This document shows positions 18,732 through 32,607 of a stretch of 64,000 bases of DNA, piece after piece (position 1 is the stretch's first letter; the number at the start of each line of letters is the position of its first letter). The notes beneath the pieces were generated by a model. It did no database searches and had not been told where the DNA came from. It was given only the letters and a program-made list of their open reading frames with translations. Both the position numbers and the translations under genes were made by a program. Source of the stretch: a virus; the IMG/VR virus record IMGVR_UViG_3300034198_004780, positions 24,727 through 88,726 of that record; one strand, written 5' to 3'.

Positions 18732-19991
18732 TTATTTATAATATGCAACCTGGCCATATGGTGGAATTATGGATTCCGTACCGTGAATAATAAACAGTGT
18801 TTCGCAGAACTCTTCTGGACCCCAACTGCCGCATGGATATCCGTCTGTAAACATAATAAAACGTTTTGGATCAATATCGTTTTCTTCCATAAAACGGAAG
18901 TTGGCTTCAAAGTCTGTACCGCCCCCGCCCTTAACTTCGTAGCTCAAAATGTCACTGGCAGTATCTGCTGTAAACTCGGCAAAATTATAAACATCAGTGT
19001 CAAAGCACCAAAGTTTGAGTTTAAAATCTACATATTCGTCCATAATGCCTTTAACTTCGCTGATAAAGTCTTTGGCCTGCTTGTCCGAAATACTGCCGCT
19101 CATATCAATAGCACAACATACATCCACTGTTTCGTCATTGATCATACCTGGTAAAATAGCACCAGTCATTTGGCTTTTACGATTTGGACGGCTAAAGCTG
19201 AAGTTGCTCTTAAGAATACTTTGGATATTCATACGCAACAGTTCACGCCAATCCATTTTAGGTTCTGTAAAATCTTTAATCATACGTGCTACACCTGCTG
19301 GAATCTTACCAGCACCTGCGGCCTGTGCGGCACTGACCATAGCTTCTTTGATCTCATCGCGGATCTGCTTCTTTTCTTCAGCAGTTAGTTTAGGACGACC
19401 TTTGCCCTTGCCTTCTTGATCCCCACCGTCGTCATCCTCACCTTCTCCATCGCCTTCACCATCCAAATGCTCATCAAGCAATTCGCCTAGTGAACCGATG
19501 TCAATCTTTTCTGCTTTTTCATAAACATCATCATAAATCTGCTCATATGACCAACCACGATATTTGTTGTCTTGGAAGATTTTGATCCATTCTGGAACTT
19601 CGCCAATGCGTTCATCTTTGAGGATTTGATTAGCGGCATAGTCAGCGGCAATGTTTGACAATGTTGGGTCACGGCTATCACGACGACCCATATGATCAAA
19701 TACGTTATGTAGGACCTCGTGAGCAAATCCAAACTCTGCTTGTTTTGGAGTAAGACGATCTACAAATCCTACATTGTAATAAAATGTACGACCATCTGTA
19801 GCAAGTGTAGGACACCAATCACTAGCATCAACTAATTTCAAACGAGTAGCAAGATTGCCAAAGAACGGATGACGCAACAAAAGACCAACACGAGCCGTAG
19901 TTAACTTTTCGATAACCTTGTTCTTTTCCTCGTTGGTAAAAACACGAGTCTTGTCAATTTTTTTAGTACGCTCTTGCTTCATTGTAGTCAT
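18732..19991 (-). CDS. Metallopeptidase-like + vWA domain protein (DUF2201-like)
   Basis: HEVLH zincin motif, acidic linker, MIDAS-like DMSGS...GGGT...FTDG. Confidence 0.85.
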   Translation of the reverse strand: MTTMKQERTKKIDKTRVFTNEEKNKVIEKLTTARVGLLLRHPFFGNLATRLKLVDASDWCPTLATDGRTFYYNVGFVDRLTPKQAEFGFAHEVLHNVFDHMGRRDSRDPTLSNIAADYAANQILKDERIGEVPEWIKIFQDNKYRGWSYEQIYDDVYEKAEKIDIGSLGELLDEHLDGEGDGEGEDDDGGDQEGKGKGRPKLTAEEKKQIRDEIKEAMVSAAQAAGAGKIPAGVARMIKDFTEPKMDWRELLRMNIQSILKSNFSFSRPNRKSQMTGAILPGMINDETVDVCCAIDMSGSISDKQAKDFISEVKGIMDEYVDFKLKLWCFDTDVYNFAEFTADTASDILSYEVKGGGGTDFEANFRFMEENDIDPKRFIMFTDGYPCGSWGPEEFCETLFIIHGTESIIPPYGQVAYYK

Positions 19992-22638: not shown

Positions 22639-23121
22639 CTAGTCCTTGCTTACAGAGTTAAGTATCGAACGCATTTCTAATTCGGTCTTAAATGGGCCTT
22701 GAAATGGATAGCGTTCCAGTGTAATCAGTTTGGGACAAAATGATTTAACCCAACCTTTACGGAATTTAATTACATAATACCCAGCACAATACAAGCTCTT
22801 GCTCTTTGAGCTTTTGGCATAAATTGGCAACTTTTTCTTAACGTTCCATAGTGGACTAAACGCTCGTCCGTTCATTGGAAAACCATAAATGTCTTGAGAA
22901 GTTATAGTTGGCCGTGTTGTCTTTTCTTTTTTAATAGCATCTTCTGTGATAGTGATGCCGAATCGTTCTTTAATTTCTGTAAGATCACCTACTTCAATTT
23001 TTTGACCTCGACAAAGAACGCTGTAGCCTTTTTTCTCTTTGCTAAGAGTGCCAACTTTTTCACCATCGGTCTCTAGAATCCAAAATTTATTTGGAATTAA
23101 TACTTTGGCAGTTGTTATCAT
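22639..23121 (-). CDS. Hypothetical protein
   Basis: 160-aa ORF, ATGA overlap with the nuclease gene. Confidence 0.7.
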   Translation of the reverse strand: MITTAKVLIPNKFWILETDGEKVGTLSKEKKGYSVLCRGQKIEVGDLTEIKERFGITITEDAIKKEKTTRPTITSQDIYGFPMNGRAFSPLWNVKKKLPIYAKSSKSKSLYCAGYYVIKFRKGWVKSFCPKLITLERYPFQGPFKTELEMRSILNSVSKD

Positions 23122-24110
23122 TTATGATACCTCGCATTTAATGGATCTGAATAACTCTGTGCCTGTTCACTTACCTTAATCAAATCGTAGGTAGCACAGA
23201 ATTTAATAAGTCTAATACCCACTTGACTGATATTCTTTTCTTTAGCAATTTCTGCTTTAATAGTATCTTCAATCCACATTTTTGGTTCTGCTGGATGTGC
23301 CTTAAGATCGCATAAGGTAACATTGCGAGCGTAGTCATCTAACACACGATGCTCTTTACCTTCATGATCGGTCCAACGCTGCAGCATCATGTTATTCCAT
23401 GCCCAGCCTTTAGTGTTGCGATCAGCATAGGCCTCTTGCAATCCTACTTTGTTTTTTGTGCCTTTTGTGCGGACACCCGGATACGCTGAGAAGACGTTAT
23501 CGCTAGTATCCCCTCGCATGCATTTTTCAAAGAGAAGCCATTCAGGATCCGGCGCTGGTTTTTCTTCATTAGTTTTTTTATCTTTAACTCTTTTGCCTTT
23601 TTCATCAAAGTACCCTTCGTGTGTAGTAGTAACTCCAGTAACGCCATTATACTGTTTTACGTTAGGTGCAATAAGTTGTGCAAAGTCGCCATCTGTACTA
23701 ATGATAACATGATTGTCATCGGGATGTGCAGCAACCCAACCTGCAATTAGATCATCTGCTTCTAGATTAGCGTGTTGTAGAACTGTACAGTTTGTCTTTT
23801 CGTGTATGTAATCTTTAAAATCATCAAAGGTTTCCCAAAAGATTTTATCTTCTTCTGCATCTCTAGGACTCAGCGCATCACGAGCAACTTGTCGATTACG
23901 CTTGTATGGCTCGTAGTAATCCTTACGCCATGAGCGCCCCTCTAAACAAAAGATCACATGACTACCGTCAAAGTCTTTCCACGCTTTGCGTACAGAGTTT
24001 AGAATTACATGTAGACTCATTCCTACCTTTTCGCTAATGTCGCCACGTACTACATGACGAGCTCTAAAAAAAACATTTGCAGTATCGATTAATAAGTAAG
24101 TTTTATTCAT
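23118..24110 (-). CDS. rnh: T4 RNase H-like 5'-3' exonuclease / flap nuclease
   Basis: LLIDTAN, SWRK...YKRNR, LEADD, STDGDF, GDTSDNV motifs. Confidence 0.9.
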   Translation of the reverse strand: MNKTYLLIDTANVFFRARHVVRGDISEKVGMSLHVILNSVRKAWKDFDGSHVIFCLEGRSWRKDYYEPYKRNRQVARDALSPRDAEEDKIFWETFDDFKDYIHEKTNCTVLQHANLEADDLIAGWVAAHPDDNHVIISTDGDFAQLIAPNVKQYNGVTGVTTTHEGYFDEKGKRVKDKKTNEEKPAPDPEWLLFEKCMRGDTSDNVFSAYPGVRTKGTKNKVGLQEAYADRNTKGWAWNNMMLQRWTDHEGKEHRVLDDYARNVTLCDLKAHPAEPKMWIEDTIKAEIAKEKNISQVGIRLIKFCATYDLIKVSEQAQSYSDPLNARYHK

Positions 24111-24116
24111 TCTTTT

Positions 24117-24145
24117 ATTGTACTAGATTTCTCAAATAATGTCAA
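24117..24145 (-). promoter_or_regulatory. Sigma70-type promoter, probably giving a leaderless rnh mRNA
   Basis: TTGACA-17 nt-TACAAT with ATG 6 nt downstream. Confidence 0.8.
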
Positions 24146-24150
24146 TAACA

Positions 24151-24223
24151 TTGATAAATAAAGGTGCCCCTCGCGATACTCGAAATATCCAGGAGCTCTA
24201 ACAGTTAAAAGGAACTATCAGCA
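24151..24223 (+). promoter_or_regulatory. Late promoter plus conserved structured leader, copy 1
   Basis: TTGATAAATA followed by a leader nearly identical to 28535-28607, with a compensatory base-pair change. Confidence 0.7.
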
Positions 24224-24826
24224 ATGACTATTTACACCCTCTACATAAAGACCCATAATAAAACCGGTCTTAAATACCTTGGTCAAACTACATCAAAAGA
24301 TCCACACAAATATCCTGGATCTGGATTATATTGGAAAGCTCATTTGAATAAACATGGATATGATTATAACACGGAAATCCTACACGAATGCCAATCTAAA
24401 GAAGAATTAAAAGAACGAGGTTTATATTACAGTAATCTTTGGAATATAGTAGAAAGTAATAACTGGGCTAATCTTAAAGAAGAACAAGGCGACGGTGGTA
24501 GGCAAAGTGAAGCAGTTAGAAAACGAATTAGTGAAACAGGCAAAGGTAGAATACCTTGGAACAAAGGCAAACAAATATGGTCCGAAGAAGAAAAGATCAA
24601 AATCGGAGAACGCAATAAAGCACGTGGACCGCAATCTGCAGAAACTATTGCTAAACGTGTAGAAAAAACTACAGGTAAAAAAAGAACTGATGAACAAAAA
24701 CAGCGATCTTCTGATGCACAAAAAGGAAGAGAATTAACTGAAGAGCACAAGGCTAAATTAAAAGCGGCGGCACAAAATAGAATTGCACCGCCGTGGAACA
24801 AGGGACTTAAAAAAAAGTCTAGCTAA
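24224..24826 (+). mobile_element. Free-standing GIY-YIG homing endonuclease with NUMOD3-like repeats
   Basis: LYIKTH...KYLGQT...YPGSG...E...WANL nuclease domain; basic helical repeats and PWNKG twice; antisense to flanking operon. Confidence 0.85.
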
Positions 24827-25196
24827 TCTCTGACTTTCCGTTAGGCAATTTGTTTACATTAATATAACCCGAACCTCTACGATCCATTCCGGGTACGTTT
24901 TCTTCACTGCCTACTTCACGACATAAATCACTAAACCACTGATCTACAAGTTCTTCATCTGTAGTGCCAGTGTATCCATTGTTTCTTAACATCGACACAA
25001 AATACTCATTCCAGTCAAGTTCAAAAAAGCCATTCTTTGGATTTTCTGGATTTACGTGAGTTTGTAAAACGGTTACCCACGGCTCCTTATTGGCAGTTGC
25101 TGCCGTCTTCGGATCTGCTGGACTAGCGTCTACTCGATACTTTTCAGCTTCTTTTGTTTTTTTTGACTTGAACAAGTCTTTAATTTTTTCTAACAT
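24819..25196 (-). CDS. Hypothetical protein
   Basis: 125-aa ORF; stop overlaps the endonuclease stop. Confidence 0.7.
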   Translation of the reverse strand: MLEKIKDLFKSKKTKEAEKYRVDASPADPKTAATANKEPWVTVLQTHVNPENPKNGFFELDWNEYFVSMLRNNGYTGTTDEELVDQWFSDLCREVGSEENVPGMDRRGSGYINVNKLPNGKSEIS

Positions 25197-25459
25197 ATCT
25201 TACCTTTTATTATTGCTACCAAAAATTCTTCTTTAGTCAACCAGTAATTTTCAAAAACTGGTGTACCTGGTCCTGTCCAAACAGCTTCACCATGATACCC
25301 CAATTTTAACCAAATCCAGCAACCACTTATTAAACAGCGATGCGGCCACCATGCAAATGTTAATCGCCATTGTGCTTTTCTAAAAAAAGCATCATACCAA
25401 TCTCTTGTTTCAAATGGGATCGGCATATTATATCCAACTAGCCGCTCTAGCAATTCCAA
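25190..25459 (-). CDS. Trp-rich hypothetical protein
   Basis: 89-aa ORF; true start may be the internal MPIP. Confidence 0.55.
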   Translation of the reverse strand: MELLERLVGYNMPIPFETRDWYDAFFRKAQWRLTFAWWPHRCLISGCWIWLKLGYHGEAVWTGPGTPVFENYWLTKEEFLVAIIKGKIC

Positions 25460-25691
25460 CTAATCCAACTAAAATCCAAAATGCGTTTAATAATGTATAA
25501 GCCGCATCTTTTTTCAAGGTAGCACAATATGTTAATAATATTGCATCTATGGTATTAAACACCCACACAAACATAAATGGACTATCTGGTCCTAACCAAG
25601 ATACTAAGCTAAAACTAATGATACGCATAACAACCCCAATCATTTCAAATTGAGGGATATGCGTATTAATATAATTTAAAACAAATTTCAT
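25428..25691 (-). CDS. Small three-TM membrane protein
   Basis: Three hydrophobic segments; abuts the queE stop. Confidence 0.65.
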   Translation of the reverse strand: MKFVLNYINTHIPQFEMIGVVMRIISFSLVSWLGPDSPFMFVWVFNTIDAILLTYCATLKKDAAYTLLNAFWILVGLVGIARAASWI

Positions 25692-26564
25692 TTAAGTTCC
25701 CCACTCATTCTTGAAAAGCGGCACCTGAAGCCTATCACTATATCTTAGGCCATTTTTCATAGCTATCAACGCCACTGCCTTATTATTCAGAGCGTATACA
25801 CTTTCAACGCCTCCGACCGGCATTAAGTAGACATGACCTGTAAATCCAGCGGCACGATATTCACTTGCGGCTTTAAGAGCATAATCACAATCTTCTTCAG
25901 TAGCAATAACAAATTTAAGATAGGTAGTACCTACTTGTTCATACTCACATACAACTTCTGGGCGAATAGCTTCTTCCCACTTTTCACCACTGCAAGGAAG
26001 TTTAGCACTGACACTAAATGTAATCTCACGATCAATGCCATAAGCGTTGCGCCATTTAGTTAGATAGTCTTTAAATTCTGGAGTTAGCTTTTGAGTACCA
26101 TTTGTTTCAAAAGTAATCTCTTTTAATCCCTTCATTTTAAGATTGTCAAGCAGGTCTGGATAAGCACGTTGCCAGCCTAGCAAAGGTTCACCGCCTGTAA
26201 TAACCAAATGTTCATCTAACCATTCATTGTGCGGTAGAATTTCCATAATGCGATCTGCAAGTTCATTTGAACTTTCTTTAATAACAAATTTTTTAAATTC
26301 GGGATATATAGAACTATAACTATCGCATCCAGTTTTTGCCAACGGTAAATCTTTAAATGTTTTATATTGATCAATATTTTTAATAAACTCAACAACTTCT
26401 GGATTATGCGTTTCGTCAACACCGAGAATGTCTTTTTCGTATCTTCCAAAATTTTTACAACGGAAGTTGCAACCAAACATACGAAGGAACACACTCGGGA
26501 CACCCATATATCGACCTTCTCCTTGTATGCTGTAAAATAGCTCTGTATAATGTAATTTTGACAT
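25692..26564 (-). CDS. queE: 7-carboxy-7-deazaguanine (CDG) synthase, radical SAM
   Basis: ELFYSIQGEG...FLRMFGCNFRC...GCDS, VITGGEP, ETNGT, VYLMP. Confidence 0.88.
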   Translation of the reverse strand: MSKLHYTELFYSIQGEGRYMGVPSVFLRMFGCNFRCKNFGRYEKDILGVDETHNPEVVEFIKNIDQYKTFKDLPLAKTGCDSYSSIYPEFKKFVIKESSNELADRIMEILPHNEWLDEHLVITGGEPLLGWQRAYPDLLDNLKMKGLKEITFETNGTQKLTPEFKDYLTKWRNAYGIDREITFSVSAKLPCSGEKWEEAIRPEVVCEYEQVGTTYLKFVIATEEDCDYALKAASEYRAAGFTGHVYLMPVGGVESVYALNNKAVALIAMKNGLRYSDRLQVPLFKNEWGT

Positions 26565-27350
26565 TCAAATCCTTTTTTGTTTAATGATACCATAATCTTC
26601 AAACGTCTTTCCAATATACGGAAAAAAATCTTTATGAAAATAGCAAAATCGTTTAGTTATTATAGCATTATTATCTAACACAGTCAATGTATTTTTAGTA
26701 AATGTTGGATACAATTTTAACAAATCATCGCTGTTTTCACAAAACCCTAACGGTGTTTTATATGAATACTTCGATGCGGCTAAACTCCTACTTCGTAATC
26801 CCTGTTTTACTTTTCTTGGCCGTTTGCTTGCGGCCTGTTTTTTAAGTTTGGTTTCTTTTGAGTCTTTTCTATTTTTGGCCAACGCTTCATATAAAATTCC
26901 ATTATACATGTCAAATAATTTTTTAGGAATTCTTTTAACTTCGTTCGTATATAGGTGTTTTGCTACTACTGTATTTTTGCTATAATTACTAACAACCTTT
27001 GCGTGTTCCTCTCTAATATAAGCATAAACCCTGCTGGTAATTTTATAATCACGTTGAACATCACCGGTTGTTGAATACACCATTTTGTGTAACGCTTTAA
27101 TCATTTTAGGACTGTTAGTTGCCCTTGCCAATAACAGATGAGCAATATAGTGTTGTCTAGCACCTAATTTAATAAGATTGTTTTTATTGTTGGTACCATT
27201 AAAAGAACGAGGAATGATATGATGATTTTCAATGTAACCATCAAATTTAATATTTTTATAATAGTTGATAAATTTTAGATAGCGTTCTATGATGTATTCT
27301 TTGGGAAGAATAGAATTTTTGAGAAGGTATTGTTTAATGTCATCAGACAT
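26565..27350 (-). mobile_element. Free-standing HNH homing endonuclease
   Basis: ENHHIIPRS...NNLIKLGARQHYIAHLLL; AT-rich; start reassigned to ATG 27350 after GGAG SD. Confidence 0.8.
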
Positions 27351-27435
27351 ATAAGATACTCCAGTAAAGTAATAAGGGGCTATCTGCGTTACTGGCACAG
27401 AAGGAGGATCAGTCCGTTCACCCAATATTATTTAT
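27351..27435 (-). promoter_or_regulatory. Late promoter plus structured leader with SD pseudoknot
   Basis: ATAAATA, then stem UCUGUG/CGCAGA whose loop CCAGUAA is complementary to UUACUGG overlapping the SD. Confidence 0.6.
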
Positions 27436-27632
27436 TATTCTGCCCTTCCGCTAGTGCATGAATCACTCCACGTATCTGCCGCTTGTTTTTGATACTGCGC
27501 CAAATCCCATTTATCCTTAGCCGCTTTGTAGGCATCTTCAGTTAATCCATGCCAACCGCAACAATCACCTGTGGGGCTACGGCCACAACCACAAGATCCA
27601 ATCTTACCATTTTCATTTGCTCTAACCTGCAT
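27435..27632 (-). CDS. CDGSH-like iron-sulfur/zinc-finger microprotein
   Basis: CGCGRSPTGDCCGWH resembles the CxCxxSxxxPxCDGSH motif. Confidence 0.6.
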   Translation of the reverse strand: MQVRANENGKIGSCGCGRSPTGDCCGWHGLTEDAYKAAKDKWDLAQYQKQAADTWSDSCTSGRAE

Positions 27633-28162
27633 TATTTTTCACCTTTTAAGCTGTCCATAATTACTCTGCGTTCTTTATTATACACTTGTTTTTGAAGAAA
27701 AGCAACAAACTCGTCGTGTTCCATTTTCTCTGCTTTATTTAGAATATTTTGGCAAGCCCGCAAATAATACCTACGACGAGCGGCTTTGGTAACACCTTTT
27801 TCATTTTCTACCGTAAATTGAAAAGTTCGAACCAACGCCTCTGCTGCCTCACTGGGTTTACCGTGCCATTCCACGTCACCGTCATTGGTAATAATTAGTA
27901 CTTCTTTATTTCCAGATGTAGTAAATGTAATTGCATTTTTAGCAGGAGCAAGATTACCAATAGTTATTCCAGAATTGGCCCAGTTATATCCAGATCCTGC
28001 TCCGCTTAATGTATATGCCGGCAACGATGATATAGTTGTTCCTACTGCTCCAGTGCTGCACCAAGTAAACTCTATAGGTTTAATCTGCTCGATAGTTCGG
28101 CGATTTATAGTTTCCCTTCCCCGGGATCGTATTGCGGACACCACCAATCGGATCTTCAACAT
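27632..28162 (-). CDS. Hypothetical protein, start uncertain
   Basis: Open frame fills the gap below HIT; nearest in-frame ATG (28162) lies inside HIT. Confidence 0.5.
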   Translation of the reverse strand: MLKIRLVVSAIRSRGRETINRRTIEQIKPIEFTWCSTGAVGTTISSLPAYTLSGAGSGYNWANSGITIGNLAPAKNAITFTTSGNKEVLIITNDGDVEWHGKPSEAAEALVRTFQFTVENEKGVTKAARRRYYLRACQNILNKAEKMEHDEFVAFLQKQVYNKERRVIMDSLKGEK

Positions 28163-28487
28163 CACCCTTTCTGCGAGGGATAAGATGGATATGGGGCCAT
28201 CCAACAGTTTGACCAGCAGTTTCGCCTTGATTAAGTCCAACATTGAAACCGTCCCATTCTCCGGCCGCCACCATTCTTTTACCTTCTCTAACAGCATCTT
28301 CAAATGCATCATTTAACAACTCCATTGAATTATATTTAGGTACGAATAATAAATGTCCAGGGGTACAGGGATATTTGTCATAATACACTACAACATGAAA
28401 ATCTTCACGAAACACATTATCCCACGGTGCGCTACTTTCCTCTAGCGTATCTGGACCGTCAAATATCTTATTGTTCATTTTGTCCAC
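28080..28487 (-). CDS. HIT-family nucleotide hydrolase
   Basis: DKYPCTPGHLLFVPK, GFNVGLN, AGQTVGWPHIHLIPR (first triad His replaced by Trp). Confidence 0.88.
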   Translation of the reverse strand: MDKMNNKIFDGPDTLEESSAPWDNVFREDFHVVVYYDKYPCTPGHLLFVPKYNSMELLNDAFEDAVREGKRMVAAGEWDGFNVGLNQGETAGQTVGWPHIHLIPRRKGDVEDPIGGVRNTIPGKGNYKSPNYRAD

Positions 28488-28500
28488 CTTAATTTACTTT

Positions 28501-28529
28501 ATTATTACATAGAACTAAAAACAAGTCAA
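28501..28529 (-). promoter_or_regulatory. Sigma70-type promoter
   Basis: TTGACT-17 nt-AATAAT upstream of HIT. Confidence 0.65.
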
Positions 28530-28534
28530 ATATA

Positions 28535-28607
28535 TTGATAAATAAAAGTGCCCCTCGCGATGCGCCAACATCCAGGAGCTCTAACAGTTTATAAGGAACT
28601 ATCAGCA
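28535..28607 (+). promoter_or_regulatory. Late promoter plus conserved structured leader, copy 2
   Basis: Direct repeat of 24151-24223. Confidence 0.7.
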
Positions 28608-29339
28608 ATGACTATTTACAACCTCTATGTAAAGACCCATAATAAAACCGGTCTTAAATATCTCGGACAAACTACCAAAAAAGATCCCCATAAGTATCCC
28701 GGTTCGGGAAAGTATTGGACAGCTCATTTAAACAAGCATGGTTATGATTATACTACAGAAGTTCTTCACGAGTGTCAATCTAAAGAGGAATTAAAAGAAC
28801 AAGGATTGCATTACAGCAATATTTGGAATGTTGTAGAAAGTGCCGAATGGGCCAACCTAAAACCTGAAAGCGGCGACGGTGGTGACATGTCTATGTGTAA
28901 ATCTTTTATTGAGGGAATTAAAAATAGAAAGATGCCATCGAGAAAAGGTATACCAAGGACTAAAGAGACTTGTGCTAATATAAGCAAGGCAAAAAAAGGT
29001 AAAATGCCAAAAAATCTAGATTTATTTACCCAATCATCAACAGATACCATATGGTATCATAATCCAATTACTGGAGAACACAGTAGGATTAAACAAGGTA
29101 ATATTGCTCCTCGAGGATTTATAAAAGGAAACATTCGAGGTTCAAAAAGTAATACCGATAATCCACGCAACCCTACTCCGGTACGTTGTGTTGAACTTTC
29201 TATGGATTTTCCTACCCTTAAATCAGCCGCTCAGTTTGCTAATCTAAAATGTCCGAGAGATATTGTTGATTCTATAATAGGTCGAAATCAAAGAAAAACC
29301 GCCGGAGGATACCATTGGCAGTTTTTATCTAAAGATTAA
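28608..29339 (+). mobile_element. Free-standing GIY-YIG homing endonuclease with NUMOD1-like C-terminus
   Basis: Start reassigned to ATG 28608. First ~90 aa closely match 24224-24826; C-terminal PVRCVEL...KTAGGYHWQF. Confidence 0.85.
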
Positions 29340-29891
29340 TTATTTCATCCAGAAGTTTTCATAAGGGAAGTCGACCCAGACATCATCCTCAGCTTTATTA
29401 ACTTCAATGCCCCAGTAGTCCATTTTAACATCGCACTTGCTGGCAAGATTATCTACAACTACTGCAAAACGTACATTGTTATTCCAAATGTTATTCCAAC
29501 GCGGATCTGACGGTAAACAACCACTGCGCCAATCTTCCATAATCCAATTAAGTGTGGCGCCACTGTCGTTGATGTCATCTACTATGAGAATATTTTTGCC
29601 TCTCGTGCTACGTGGAGTATCACCGTCGTAGGTGTCACCGGTATATCCAAACGCATCTTCCGCCATCCAAAGATTGCTTTCTGGCCCAAGTTCAGAGGCA
29701 TTATCTCGTAGACTAACACCCAAAGCAAACATAGGTACATTGAAATAATGACTGATCATAACAGCAGGCAATAACCCACCACGGGTAAGACCTACTACAT
29801 AGTCGGGACGCCATTCGCTGACGGCAATATCTCTACAGATTTTACCCATTTGAAATTGAAACTCTTGCCAACTGATTTTATTTTTGTTCAT
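29340..29891 (-). CDS. Type I phosphoribosyltransferase (xanthine/guanine PRT-like)
   Basis: VVGLTRGGLLPA, PRPP-binding ILIVDDINDSGATL, WVDFPYE. Confidence 0.85.
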   Translation of the reverse strand: MNKNKISWQEFQFQMGKICRDIAVSEWRPDYVVGLTRGGLLPAVMISHYFNVPMFALGVSLRDNASELGPESNLWMAEDAFGYTGDTYDGDTPRSTRGKNILIVDDINDSGATLNWIMEDWRSGCLPSDPRWNNIWNNNVRFAVVVDNLASKCDVKMDYWGIEVNKAEDDVWVDFPYENFWMK

Positions 29892-30372
29892 TTTTGCTCT
29901 TTCGCATTTTCATATAATATTCGTTTTGAATCCATATGTTGTTTACTAGAAAGCCCCAATCACGCACTTTCTTAAATGGCATAAACAAGGTCCAGGCCGT
30001 AACACCTGGTTTTAATTCAATACGATGATAGCTGTTGGGACTGCATATACGGAAGTGTCCAGGGCCTCTCCATTTTTGTACTTCGCAGGTCATTTCGCCC
30101 ATTTCATTAAAGAACGGAATCCACTCCCAATATCCGCCACGCAAAATTAGTGTACAGTATCCCCATGGATGATCATGAGGGGTTTCCTCGTCGCTTTTAT
30201 GAAATCGATGAAGGAAAATATTAAACAAAAATTTATTCCTATTTTTAAGAAATAAGTAATATCTAGTCAAGTATAGCTCGTTATCTACTCTATCATATAT
30301 TAAATTCTTACGACCCAATATTATCATAAATTTATCAAATAGCTTAAATAATTTTTTTATCATTAAATTCAT
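29878..30372 (-). CDS. Cupin-fold protein
   Basis: PHDHPW...GGYWE...YHRIEL cupin metal-binding pattern. Confidence 0.7.
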   Translation of the reverse strand: MNLMIKKLFKLFDKFMIILGRKNLIYDRVDNELYLTRYYLFLKNRNKFLFNIFLHRFHKSDEETPHDHPWGYCTLILRGGYWEWIPFFNEMGEMTCEVQKWRGPGHFRICSPNSYHRIELKPGVTAWTLFMPFKKVRDWGFLVNNIWIQNEYYMKMRKSKNEQK

Positions 30373-31276
30373 TTTCCCAAATGGTTACCAATTTAAACCC
30401 TAAATTTTTTAATATCTCTTCTCGTTTTATAGTGTTATTATACAACGTTCCAAACGATAAATCAACTGATGAATTAATCATTTTAGAATCAAATATATTT
30501 GGATTTCCGTGCCAGTAATCTCCATAAAATTCATATATAGTATTTGTTTTAGGATCATACCCATCTACAACAAAGTATCCTACATCATATCGAATTTCGT
30601 GTTCTCTCATAAATTCTATATCAAATGAATCTAACCACTGTTGAGATATAGGACTTACTGACGTGCCGGCACATAGTTTACACCCAGACCCCTGAATATG
30701 GTCTCTTGGCGCCTGTTTAAATACTCCGTGCTCTTTACAAATAATTTCTACTTGGTTAATAAGTGTTTTGTAATCCACTAAAGAATAATCGTATCTATCA
30801 TTATGGATGATCTTAGATCTTTTTACAAACTCATCAGTACCTAATCTTTTCTTGTTTGAAATTTTATCTTTTTTACATAAAGGACATCCTTGCCCTCTTA
30901 TAATATGGTATGCTGTATTGTTAAACACAGTATTGTGTACTTTACATAAAACGGTTAATCTACTACCGGTATTATAAAATACTGATGATAAAAAATCAAA
31001 TTTATCACCAAATTTTTTAAAACATTTAAGTTTTAAATCTTCAATATCTTGAATTAAAATTTTTGAAGATTTTTCTTTTTTTCTTTGTAACCCACATTTA
31101 GGACAACCTGCAGATAAGTGATCGTAATGATGTTGTAAAAATTTTCCATGTATCGGACAAATTATAGTAACCTTACCATTAATTTTATTACAAATATCAA
31201 GTGTTGCATAATCATACTTGTTTCCGTGTTTTAGTTTATATTTTTCTAACAACTCTTCTTTGCTATATGCTTTCAT
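30344..31276 (-). mobile_element. Free-standing endonuclease: zinc-ribbon repeats (DUF723-like) + Vsr/EDxHD-like nuclease
   Basis: Three CxxH...HxxGxGCxxC-type repeats, VVDGY...YEFYGDYWHG; very AT-rich; ATAAATA at 31302-31308. Confidence 0.8.
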
Positions 31277-31304
31277 ACTGATGATCTCCACATCTATCGT
31301 TTAT

Positions 31305-31514: not shown

Positions 31515-31843
31515 AACTTTAGTGTTTCTATTGTGATGATCTTGCCTAGCTCCTTGCCGATATCCTTGTCATCCGTGATAACATGTAGACTATTATGGTG
31601 ACGATCCTTCTGCCGGTCATAAAAACTAGTTTCAATAACAGTTCCACCCGATGCTTTAAAGACTTTAAAATTAATACCGCGATCGTTGTCTATTGATAGG
31701 CTAGGCATTACAGCAACAGCATAACTGTCTTGTTCTACTATATCTTCGCCACTATCATTAAGCCAATCGCGAAACCTTTGTTTCCACGTTTTTTTATAAT
31801 TAAAGTTGCCTGGGTTAATGCTTACATTATATGGTGATCTCAT
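31511..31843 (-). CDS. Hypothetical protein
   Basis: 110-aa ORF, ATGA overlap with folE. Confidence 0.65.
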   Translation of the reverse strand: MRSPYNVSINPGNFNYKKTWKQRFRDWLNDSGEDIVEQDSYAVAVMPSLSIDNDRGINFKVFKASGGTVIETSFYDRQKDRHHNSLHVITDDKDIGKELGKIITIETLKL

Positions 31844-32607
31844 TTACCTGCGTGTCCTTGCTGTAGTTTAATGTTATCAAAAAACTCTTTTTTAGTATCC
31901 ATGTCGCTTTGAAATGCTCCAGTTAATACTGTAGTTTGAGTCATGGAACTACCTGCCATAATTCCCCTATTGGTACAGCAACCGTGTTCGGCCTGTATAT
32001 AAACTGCAATATTCTTGCTTCCTGTAGCGTTGCTTATTTCTCTTGCGATGTCGTTACACAGTTCTTCCTGTAAAGTGCCACGGCGAGCACACCACTGAGC
32101 AATACGAGTGTACTTGCTGAGACCAATAAGCCTGTCGGCAGCAATAATACCAATATAAGCAACACCCACCACAGGCTGGTGATGATGACTACACATGCTA
32201 CGAAGCTCACTACGCACAACCAACATACCTTTGTATCCATCATCTACCTCATTAGGAAAACTTGTTGCATCGGGCGCTTCATCATACCGCCCTGCCATAA
32301 TTTCGTTAAAATACATCTTAGCTAGTCGTTTAGCAGTACCTTGACTATTAGGATCATTTTCACGGTCAATAAGTAATGCATCAAGAACGCCTTCAAATGC
32401 TATAGTTGCGTTTGCAATTAGTTCATCTCTATGTCCAACTACATATTCGCTAATATTATCTCCGGCCCAAAAGCGTTTCTTATTGCGTCGCATATTGAAG
32501 CGAATAGCATCTGCTAGGTTACCTTCTTTATAATCTTTGTTGTCATCGCCTTGCATGTCTGCACCAGCAAGGACGTTTTTTAAATCTTCTGTTGTAAATG
32601 TTGTCAA
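31840..32607 (-). CDS. folE: GTP cyclohydrolase I
   Basis: SMCSHH, IGLSKYTR, LQEEL, AEHGCCTNRG; TTG start with GGAG SD. Confidence 0.93.
   Translation of the reverse strand: MTTFTTEDLKNVLAGADMQGDDNKDYKEGNLADAIRFNMRRNKKRFWAGDNISEYVVGHRDELIANATIAFEGVLDALLIDRENDPNSQGTAKRLAKMYFNEIMAGRYDEAPDATSFPNEVDDGYKGMLVVRSELRSMCSHHHQPVVGVAYIGIIAADRLIGLSKYTRIAQWCARRGTLQEELCNDIAREISNATGSKNIAVYIQAEHGCCTNRGIMAGSSMTQTTVLTGAFQSDMDTKKEFFDNIKLQQGHAGK

Follow-up and report, generated by a model that had tools for sequence, protein, structure and literature searches.

In a stretch of viral DNA of 64,000 nucleotides (nt) (positions 24,727 to 88,726 of the IMG/VR virus record IMGVR_UViG_3300034198_004780; hereafter the window), two GIY-YIG endonuclease genes on the plus strand are each preceded by a non-coding leader, for which a conserved and covarying RNA structure was originally predicted from the letters of the window. 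We found that these leaders belong to an element, carried by many uncultured phages, in which a covarying fold is selected on the strand opposite to the endonuclease gene. The observation itself was thus confirmed and the covariation turned out to be strong, the strand had to be reassigned, and the function that we infer is that of a cis-antisense RNA gene of about 65-70 nt, with predicted RNA ends, which would restrain the endonuclease gene. We lean toward this reading by a modest degree, as judged from the sequence.

The two leaders, located at 24151-24223 and 28535-28607, are identical at 66 of 73 positions, as expected from their description as near-identical, and exceed in this respect both the first 300 nt of the two open reading frames (ORFs; 223/300 match) and their third codon positions (59/100). 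Against an expectation of 0.04, the window contains the 18-mer ATCCAGGAGCTCTAACAG at exactly two places. All the helices first described were found there, that is, the inner hairpins GAUA/UAUC and GAUG/CAUC within an outer GCCCCU/AGGAGC stem (together referred to as hairpin 1) and an AGUU/AACU hairpin around the Shine-Dalgarno (SD) sequence (hairpin 2), and most of the differences between the two leaders do fall in loops. The outer stem carries one C·A mismatch when read on the plus strand, which becomes U·G on the minus strand. Taken as plus-strand RNA, the leaders are no stabler than shuffled sequences (z +0.83, -0.41, +0.49 and -0.43), and since the two copies yield just one compensatory pair, the support for a structure comes from larger alignments. 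No Rfam family matched the window at the gathering threshold, and with E up to 10 two chance-level matches were obtained (19.4 bits against a threshold of 65, and 14.1 against 75). The proposed likeness of the copy 1 loop to an anticodon loop had to be given up: ARAGORN detected no tRNA gene between 23900 and 28900, and the sequence and length of this loop vary among copies.

For the analysis of strandedness, a total of 125 distinct copies of the element were parsed by fixed anchors instead of structure-fitted alignment, and both the filter and the search pattern treated the two kinds of mismatch alike, leaving A·C and G·U equally free. In the plus-strand reading, the 11 pairs of hairpin 1 gave 1316 Watson-Crick, 55 A·C, 0 G·U and 4 other cells over the 125 copies, and the internal pairs of hairpin 2, which has 55 distinct stems, gave 493 Watson-Crick, 33 A·C and 2 G·U. 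An A·C on either strand reads as G·U on its complement, so that the minus strand is the one on which the fold is maintained. The folding energies calculated by RNAfold also favour this strand, which is the stabler one in 110 of 122 copies (mean -17.1 versus -12.6 kcal/mol). The same 57 nt of the two window copies gave -19.2 and -20.5 kcal/mol on the minus strand (z -2.8 and -2.3) versus -7.0 and -10.5 kcal/mol on the plus strand (z +0.3 and -0.6), while the region of hairpin 2 averages -2.3 kcal/mol on the plus strand versus -6.7 on the minus strand, where hairpin 1, hereafter called hairpin B, averages -10.2 kcal/mol.

The check by covariance models on larger sets likewise gave strong covariation, and on the minus strand. 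In the minus-strand model (R2), 99.7% of 347 cells pair and 15 of 16 pairs are changed on both sides, with a covariation score of 0.755 versus 0.266 in shuffles, none of the 500 shuffles reaching the observed score. For a larger set of 94 distinct sequences, 97.2% of 1486 cells pair on the minus strand. A plus-strand model gave 85.1% paired. Because alignments fitted to a model lean toward that model, it is the anchored counts that carry the argument. The plus-strand model, R1, built on a MAFFT alignment, was discarded because hairpin 2 was misaligned (67.9% paired), and was replaced by the anchored parse and R2. The counts of A·C versus G·U may serve as a worked example of how a covarying motif can be reassigned to the other strand. 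Among 84 distinct inner-hairpin sequences of hairpin B, four occur in both orientations as exact reverse complements (L115/L170, L005/L035, L147/L133 and L177/L139), which looks like inversion by template switching or like indifference to the orientation of the loop.

Read on the minus strand, the element consists, in this order, of a 5' G, helix A (hairpin 2 above), a single A, hairpin B, A or C, and a U-rich tail (coordinates of the window copies are listed in the table). Helix A is closed by an invariant CUG/UAG clamp containing one G·U pair, and its loop displays CCUUU, an anti-SD sequence. Hairpin B is composed of 6 base pairs (bp), then one G-C, G·U or A-U pair between two invariant bulged G residues, and then 4-6 bp. 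The tail contains 6-9 U in the last 15 nt in all of 22 copies, so that a stem-loop followed by a U-rich tract, the hallmark of intrinsic terminators, is present. This tail is the complement of a TAAATA box on the plus strand. In two of the 15 copies from large virus records (L260 and L261, both in the complete 210-kb genome G002) a run of A stands in place of the box, so that the minus-strand U tract stays pure while the plus-strand promoter is lost. The predicted RNA spans the whole leader, the loop of helix A being complementary to the SD and the AUG lying 1-2 nt beyond the predicted 5' end. A variant was noticed in G002 (L253 and L258-L261): its start codon comes before CAGC, with the AUG thus enclosed by helix A, whose loop has about 20 nt, and CAGC-N5-TATTTA forms part of the coding sequence.

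A second TAAATA box, reading leftward, is located within codons 2-4 of the endonuclease gene. Its reverse complement, TATTTA, occurs unchanged in 95 of 122 copies and with a single deviating letter in 21, and stands 4-6 nt from CAGC in 84 of the 95. Its offset from the start codon is 3, 4, 5, 6 or 8, that is, all three reading frames are represented, and among homologues of the window's protein it was found in 15/15 with the element versus 3/27 without. Since the first codons double as a putative promoter of the opposite strand, unrelated endonucleases start with M-x-I-Y or M-Y-L. The plus-strand TAAATA stands 3-6 nt upstream of the first helix in all 125 copies (the distance to the first base of hairpin B being 5 nt in 87), and the two facing boxes are separated by 62-69 nt in 79 of 95 copies. 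Of the 45 occurrences of TAAATA in the window, 18 are intergenic and lie 20-70 nt before genes, intergenic DNA making up 7.7% of bases (p 2e-9), and a late sigma factor of the gp55 type (phrog_234) is encoded in four of five element-bearing records, including that of the window (E 9.5e-26). The box thus behaves as a promoter-like sequence in this phage, and its firing is predicted on these grounds. The start of late transcripts in T4 is located some six bases downstream of the box. The late promoter boxes, as given in PMC2984593, are TATAAATA in T4 and NATAAATA in S-PM2. Overlapping TATTTA, a sigma-70-like sequence TTTACA-17-CATAAT (24231-24259 and 28615-28643, plus strand) is kept at the start of both ORFs.

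Since the minus strand combines a promoter-like box with two helices and a terminator, we read the element as a small antisense RNA gene, which would overlap the whole 5' untranslated region of each endonuclease gene. The leftward TAAATA, of the T4-type late promoter form, would drive its transcription from at or near the G of GCUG; helix A would then form, displaying the anti-SD CCUUU in its loop, followed by hairpin B with its two bulged G, and transcription would stop at the U tract. This tract being complementary to the TAAATA that would drive the endonuclease gene, the two putative promoters point toward each other over a distance of 62-69 bp, and the two RNAs would be complementary over the whole leader. 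The small RNA might contact the leader loop to loop and then form a duplex over the SD, by which translation would be blocked or cleavage of the endonuclease mRNA provoked, and antisense transcription running into the endonuclease promoter might interfere as well.

Copies of the element were found ahead of homing-endonuclease genes, of both the GIY-YIG and the HNH type, in well over 100 contigs of uncultured phages. A protein-based search of IMG/VR, blind to the leader, gave 63 loci, 42 of them non-duplicate, with this leader present in 15 and absent from 27. The window's own outer stem, searched for as an exact match, added six loci, some of which lie ahead of HNH genes or GIY-YIG genes of a different type, and a looser pattern that left the stems free gave at least 132 stretches, the minus-strand RNA model fitting 98 of the first 100 loci. 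The same pattern also gave at least 120 stretches in bacterial and archaeal genomes, of which 80 loci were fetched and only one fitted the model, the rest being chance matches; this level serves as a control for the viral collection. The single fit (L291, CAIYAG010000327.1, 86.4 bits) is on a 2.2-kb contig in a bin of an uncultured Bacteroidetes metagenome-assembled genome, and is probably phage DNA caught in the bin. Neither 7 kb of the window (megablast) nor the 96-nt element of the related contig L132, used as query in place of the window's own copy (blastn), matched any of 50,697 phage records, so that these searches name no cultured phage that carries the element.

The association with endonuclease genes holds across unrelated catalytic types. 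Five large virus records carry 3, 7, 3, 1 and 1 copies, all 15 of which adjoin an ORF of 153-278 amino acids (aa) on the opposite strand, and 13 of these ORFs match endonuclease families of PHROGs, which was used because Pfam named few of them. Among the downstream ORFs scanned against PHROGs (71 of 108 distinct ORFs, apart from 35 that were cut to about 90 aa by short flanks and the two window ORFs scanned separately), 65 match endonuclease families, including GIY-YIG phrog_314, HNH phrog_655 and HNH phrog_12324. Both window genes proved to be of the GIY-YIG type as predicted, phrog_314 comprising GIY-YIG/NUMOD3 homing endonucleases; the association with GIY-YIG genes therefore stands, but it is not exclusive, since HNH genes carry the element too. 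In four loci (L152, L188, L151 and L180) the downstream ORF is absent or has just 4-34 aa, and these may be remnants after loss or decay of the endonuclease gene.

The sequence of the outer stem tends to be common within one genome, such as GCCCCU at 24166-24171 and 28550-28555 of the window, or GCUAGU in four and GUGGAU in two of the seven copies in G002, which points to recent duplication or gene conversion. Copies that share helix sequences could produce RNAs acting in trans on each other's leaders. As a tentative extension, which we rate well below the antisense reading itself, the element might be an antisense RNA gene expressed late, a portable 'governor' that moves along with, and is exchanged among, unrelated homing endonuclease genes, its RNAs acting in trans and thereby controlling endonuclease dosage genome-wide in jumbo phages that carry gp55.

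Several observations weigh against an antisense RNA gene. A rival reading is an element that serves as a terminator or insulator only, with no promoter of its own, stopping antisense read-through from the neighbours, stabilizing their 3' ends and making the cassette tolerable in an operon. The candidate promoter is a 6-bp box with presumed firing and with a distance to the start borrowed from T4, and an RNA starting at GCUG would cover the SD, not the AUG. The endonuclease gene is mostly antiparallel to its neighbours (41 of 77 upstream genes are on the opposite strand; in another count, 11-12 of 15 loci), which puts the element in the path of the neighbours' transcripts; its hairpin and U tract on the minus strand may mainly serve these neighbours, and no RNA gene would then be needed. 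In L004, hairpin B stands alone as an intergenic terminator between two genes of the same strand, and both window copies have a sigma-70-like promoter just past the terminator, by which transcription could restart; a simple terminator scan of the window did not call hairpin B, because of its bulges. This restart promoter was detected in just 32 of 121 copies elsewhere and is hence not a constant part of the element. A terminator alone would also leave unexplained why helix A, the invariant GCUG/UAGAG clamp and a TAAATA held at 4-6 nt in three frames are conserved. Furthermore, copy 1 already has a strong minus-strand terminator upstream (24793-24765), and the upstream gene shares the strand of the endonuclease gene in 17 of 77 loci, both of which favour a transcript of the element's own. 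We give the terminator-only explanation a minor though real chance. That TAAATA drives late expression of the next minus-strand gene, with the hairpins and U tract tuning read-through as a leader or attenuator, appears improbable. The box and the structure do lie on one strand, and coding regions of T4 endonucleases hold promoters for downstream host genes, as stated in the Edgell review (PMC2988022). The next gene is, however, on the other strand in 17 of 77 loci and of unclear orientation in 19, and an alternative antiterminator fold was not seen, no systematic search for one having been made.

The original prediction placed the hairpins in the endonuclease mRNA, as an operator, processing signal or SD mask. 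The structure indeed lies between a promoter-like box and the AUG, with part of the SD within hairpin 2, and is thereby located downstream of the late-promoter-like box, as was pointed out, unlike the T4 hairpins that late transcripts escape; an mRNA would, besides, carry the near-complement of every helix. The excess of A·C over G·U, 55:0 in hairpin 1 and 33:2 in hairpin 2, and a plus-strand fold no better than that of shuffled sequences, with hairpin 2 as weak as given above, favour the opposite strand, and render a role as mRNA leader improbable. What was confirmed from that prediction is a conserved, covarying and endonuclease-associated RNA motif that keeps its covariation in larger alignments and matches nothing in Rfam. 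Least probable of all, in our judgment, is an element acting at the level of DNA, such as an inverted-repeat protein site, a cruciform, or a recombination or homing signal at the border of the cassette. The element does mark the 5' border of cassettes with unrelated endonuclease genes, and the four inner hairpins present in both orientations would suit such a site. A duplex site, however, needs either strict complementarity or none, so that strand-specific wobbles are unexpected, and the stems vary freely with pairing kept, as seen from the number of distinct hairpin 2 stems.

Features of the two element copies and their surroundings in the window (positions as in the 64,000-nt stretch)
Feature	Position	Strand	Remarks
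Copy 1, predicted antisense small RNA, ~68 nt	24155..24222	-	Fold -20.5 kcal/mol, z -2.46; R2 63.4 bits, E 2.6e-10
Copy 1, layout: 5' G 24222, helix A 24221-24198, linker 24197, hairpin B 24196-24166, U-rich tail 24165-24155		-	Ends predicted
Copy 1, hairpin B (outer GCCCCU/AGGAGC plus inner GAUA/UAUC of the original prediction)	24166..24196	-	One G-C between bulged G, then ACCUUUAUUUA
Copy 1, helix A (second hairpin of the original prediction)	24198..24221	-	9 bp including two wobbles; loop CCUUUU complementary to SD
Copy 2, predicted antisense small RNA	28539..28606	-	Fold -21.8 kcal/mol, z -2.69; R2 66.7 bits, E 5.3e-11
Copy 2, layout: 5' G 28606, helix A 28605-28581, linker 28580, hairpin B 28579-28550, U-rich tail 28549-28539		-	
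Endonuclease gene 1, GIY-YIG/NUMOD3 homing endonuclease, 200 aa	24224..24826	+	phrog_314 E 1.6e-15; NUMOD3; ORF list
Endonuclease gene 2, GIY-YIG/NUMOD3 homing endonuclease, 243 aa	28608..29339	+	phrog_314 E 6.1e-15; alignment
Copy 1, TAAATA, putative antisense RNA promoter	24229..24234	-	Endonuclease codons 2-4; 6 nt above GCUG
Copy 2, TAAATA	28613..28618	-	Endonuclease codons 2-4
Copy 1, TAAATA, likely late promoter of endonuclease gene	24155..24160	+	Complement is the minus-strand U tract
Copy 2, TAAATA	28539..28544	+	Also complement of terminator U tract
Sigma-70-like promoter TTGACA-17-TACAAT, past terminator	24117..24145	-	Toward 5'-3' exonuclease gene (23118-24110); 11/12 consensus matches
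Sigma-70-like promoter TTGACT-17-AATAAT	28501..28529	-	Toward HIT-domain gene; 10/12 consensus matches
Strong terminator-like hairpin, 11 pairs then CUUUUAAUUU	24765-24793	-	Inside 3' end of gene 1, just after convergent gene 24819-25196

The IMG/VR virus record containing the window is 88.7 kb long and 25% complete according to CheckV, and its source is a jumbo phage. The gene content includes a 3389-aa virion protein, a Lon-like protease, a clamp loader and a T4-type family B DNA polymerase, the nearest relatives of which among cultured phages are those of Sinorhizobium phage Phosso (48.9%) and the 121Q-like E. coli jumbo phages (43-44%). Alignment of the two endonucleases indicated a homologous catalytic N-terminal third and a different C-terminal part, and according to the ORF list each of the two genes is antiparallel to its flanking genes. 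Three HNH-type endonuclease genes in the window, all on the minus strand (18732-19991, phrog_1314; 26565-27425, phrog_655; 30344-31291, phrog_559), are parallel to their neighbours and do not carry the element. Genes for a QueE-like radical SAM protein (25692-26564), a GTP cyclohydrolase (31840-32556) and a phosphoribosyltransferase (29340-29891) are interspersed among the endonuclease genes and suggest 7-deazaguanine modification of DNA.

No published description of the element was found in full-text searches of literature outside subscription journals, and, being absent from Rfam and common in uncultured large phages, it would represent a new RNA family. Homing endonucleases need low and late levels, for which T4 uses mRNA hairpins, autorepression and processing; an antisense cassette common to GIY-YIG and HNH genes would, if true, add a further and modular control. 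Cis-antisense control of this kind is known from IS10/Tn10, in which RNA-OUT acts against the transposase RNA-IN, and similarly from Sok and CopA. As predicted for the phage element, RNA-OUT is a short and stable stem-loop RNA with its promoter inside the 5' end of a nuclease gene of a mobile element, is complementary to the ribosome-binding region of its target, and has a promoter that faces that of the target. The phage element, known here from sequence, differs in having another sequence, a two-hairpin fold and late-type boxes, and in being linked to a homing endonuclease and not a transposase.

Among phage systems, the review PMC2984593 describes CfrI of cyanophage S-PM2 (Millard 2010), an antisense RNA of about 225 nt that links an endonuclease gene to psbA. 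Compared by this description, CfrI likewise overlaps a homing endonuclease gene in a T4-like phage, and the element differs in its length of about 65-70 nt, its place at the 5' leader, its several copies per genome and its association with several endonuclease families. I-TevI, I-TevII, I-TevIII, segB and Aeh1 mobE, as summarized in PMC2988022, carry SD-sequestering mRNA hairpins from which late transcripts escape by starting inside. A late promoter and a hairpin beside the endonuclease start, with a presumed limit on endonuclease synthesis, are shared with the element, but its box is upstream of all helices instead of inside or beyond the 5' arm, selection acts on the fold of the opposite strand, and a stable SD-masking structure was not seen on the plus strand. 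In the 'fractured genes' of Dassa 2009 (PMC2677866), conserved hairpins and a TATAAATA element precede free-standing GIY-YIG and Vsr-like endonuclease genes in environmental phage DNA of metagenomes. Identity with these hairpins was rejected, as the printed leaders of NrdA-1, gp41-1 and DnaE-1 (Figure S4 of PMC2677866) each consist of one SD-masking hairpin whose loop holds the promoter, and have no motif in common with the element. With intrinsic (Rho-independent) terminators, finally, the element shares a hairpin followed by a U tract on the minus strand, and is set apart from them by the two invariant bulged G residues in the interrupted stem of hairpin B and by the conserved helix and promoter-like box that precede it.

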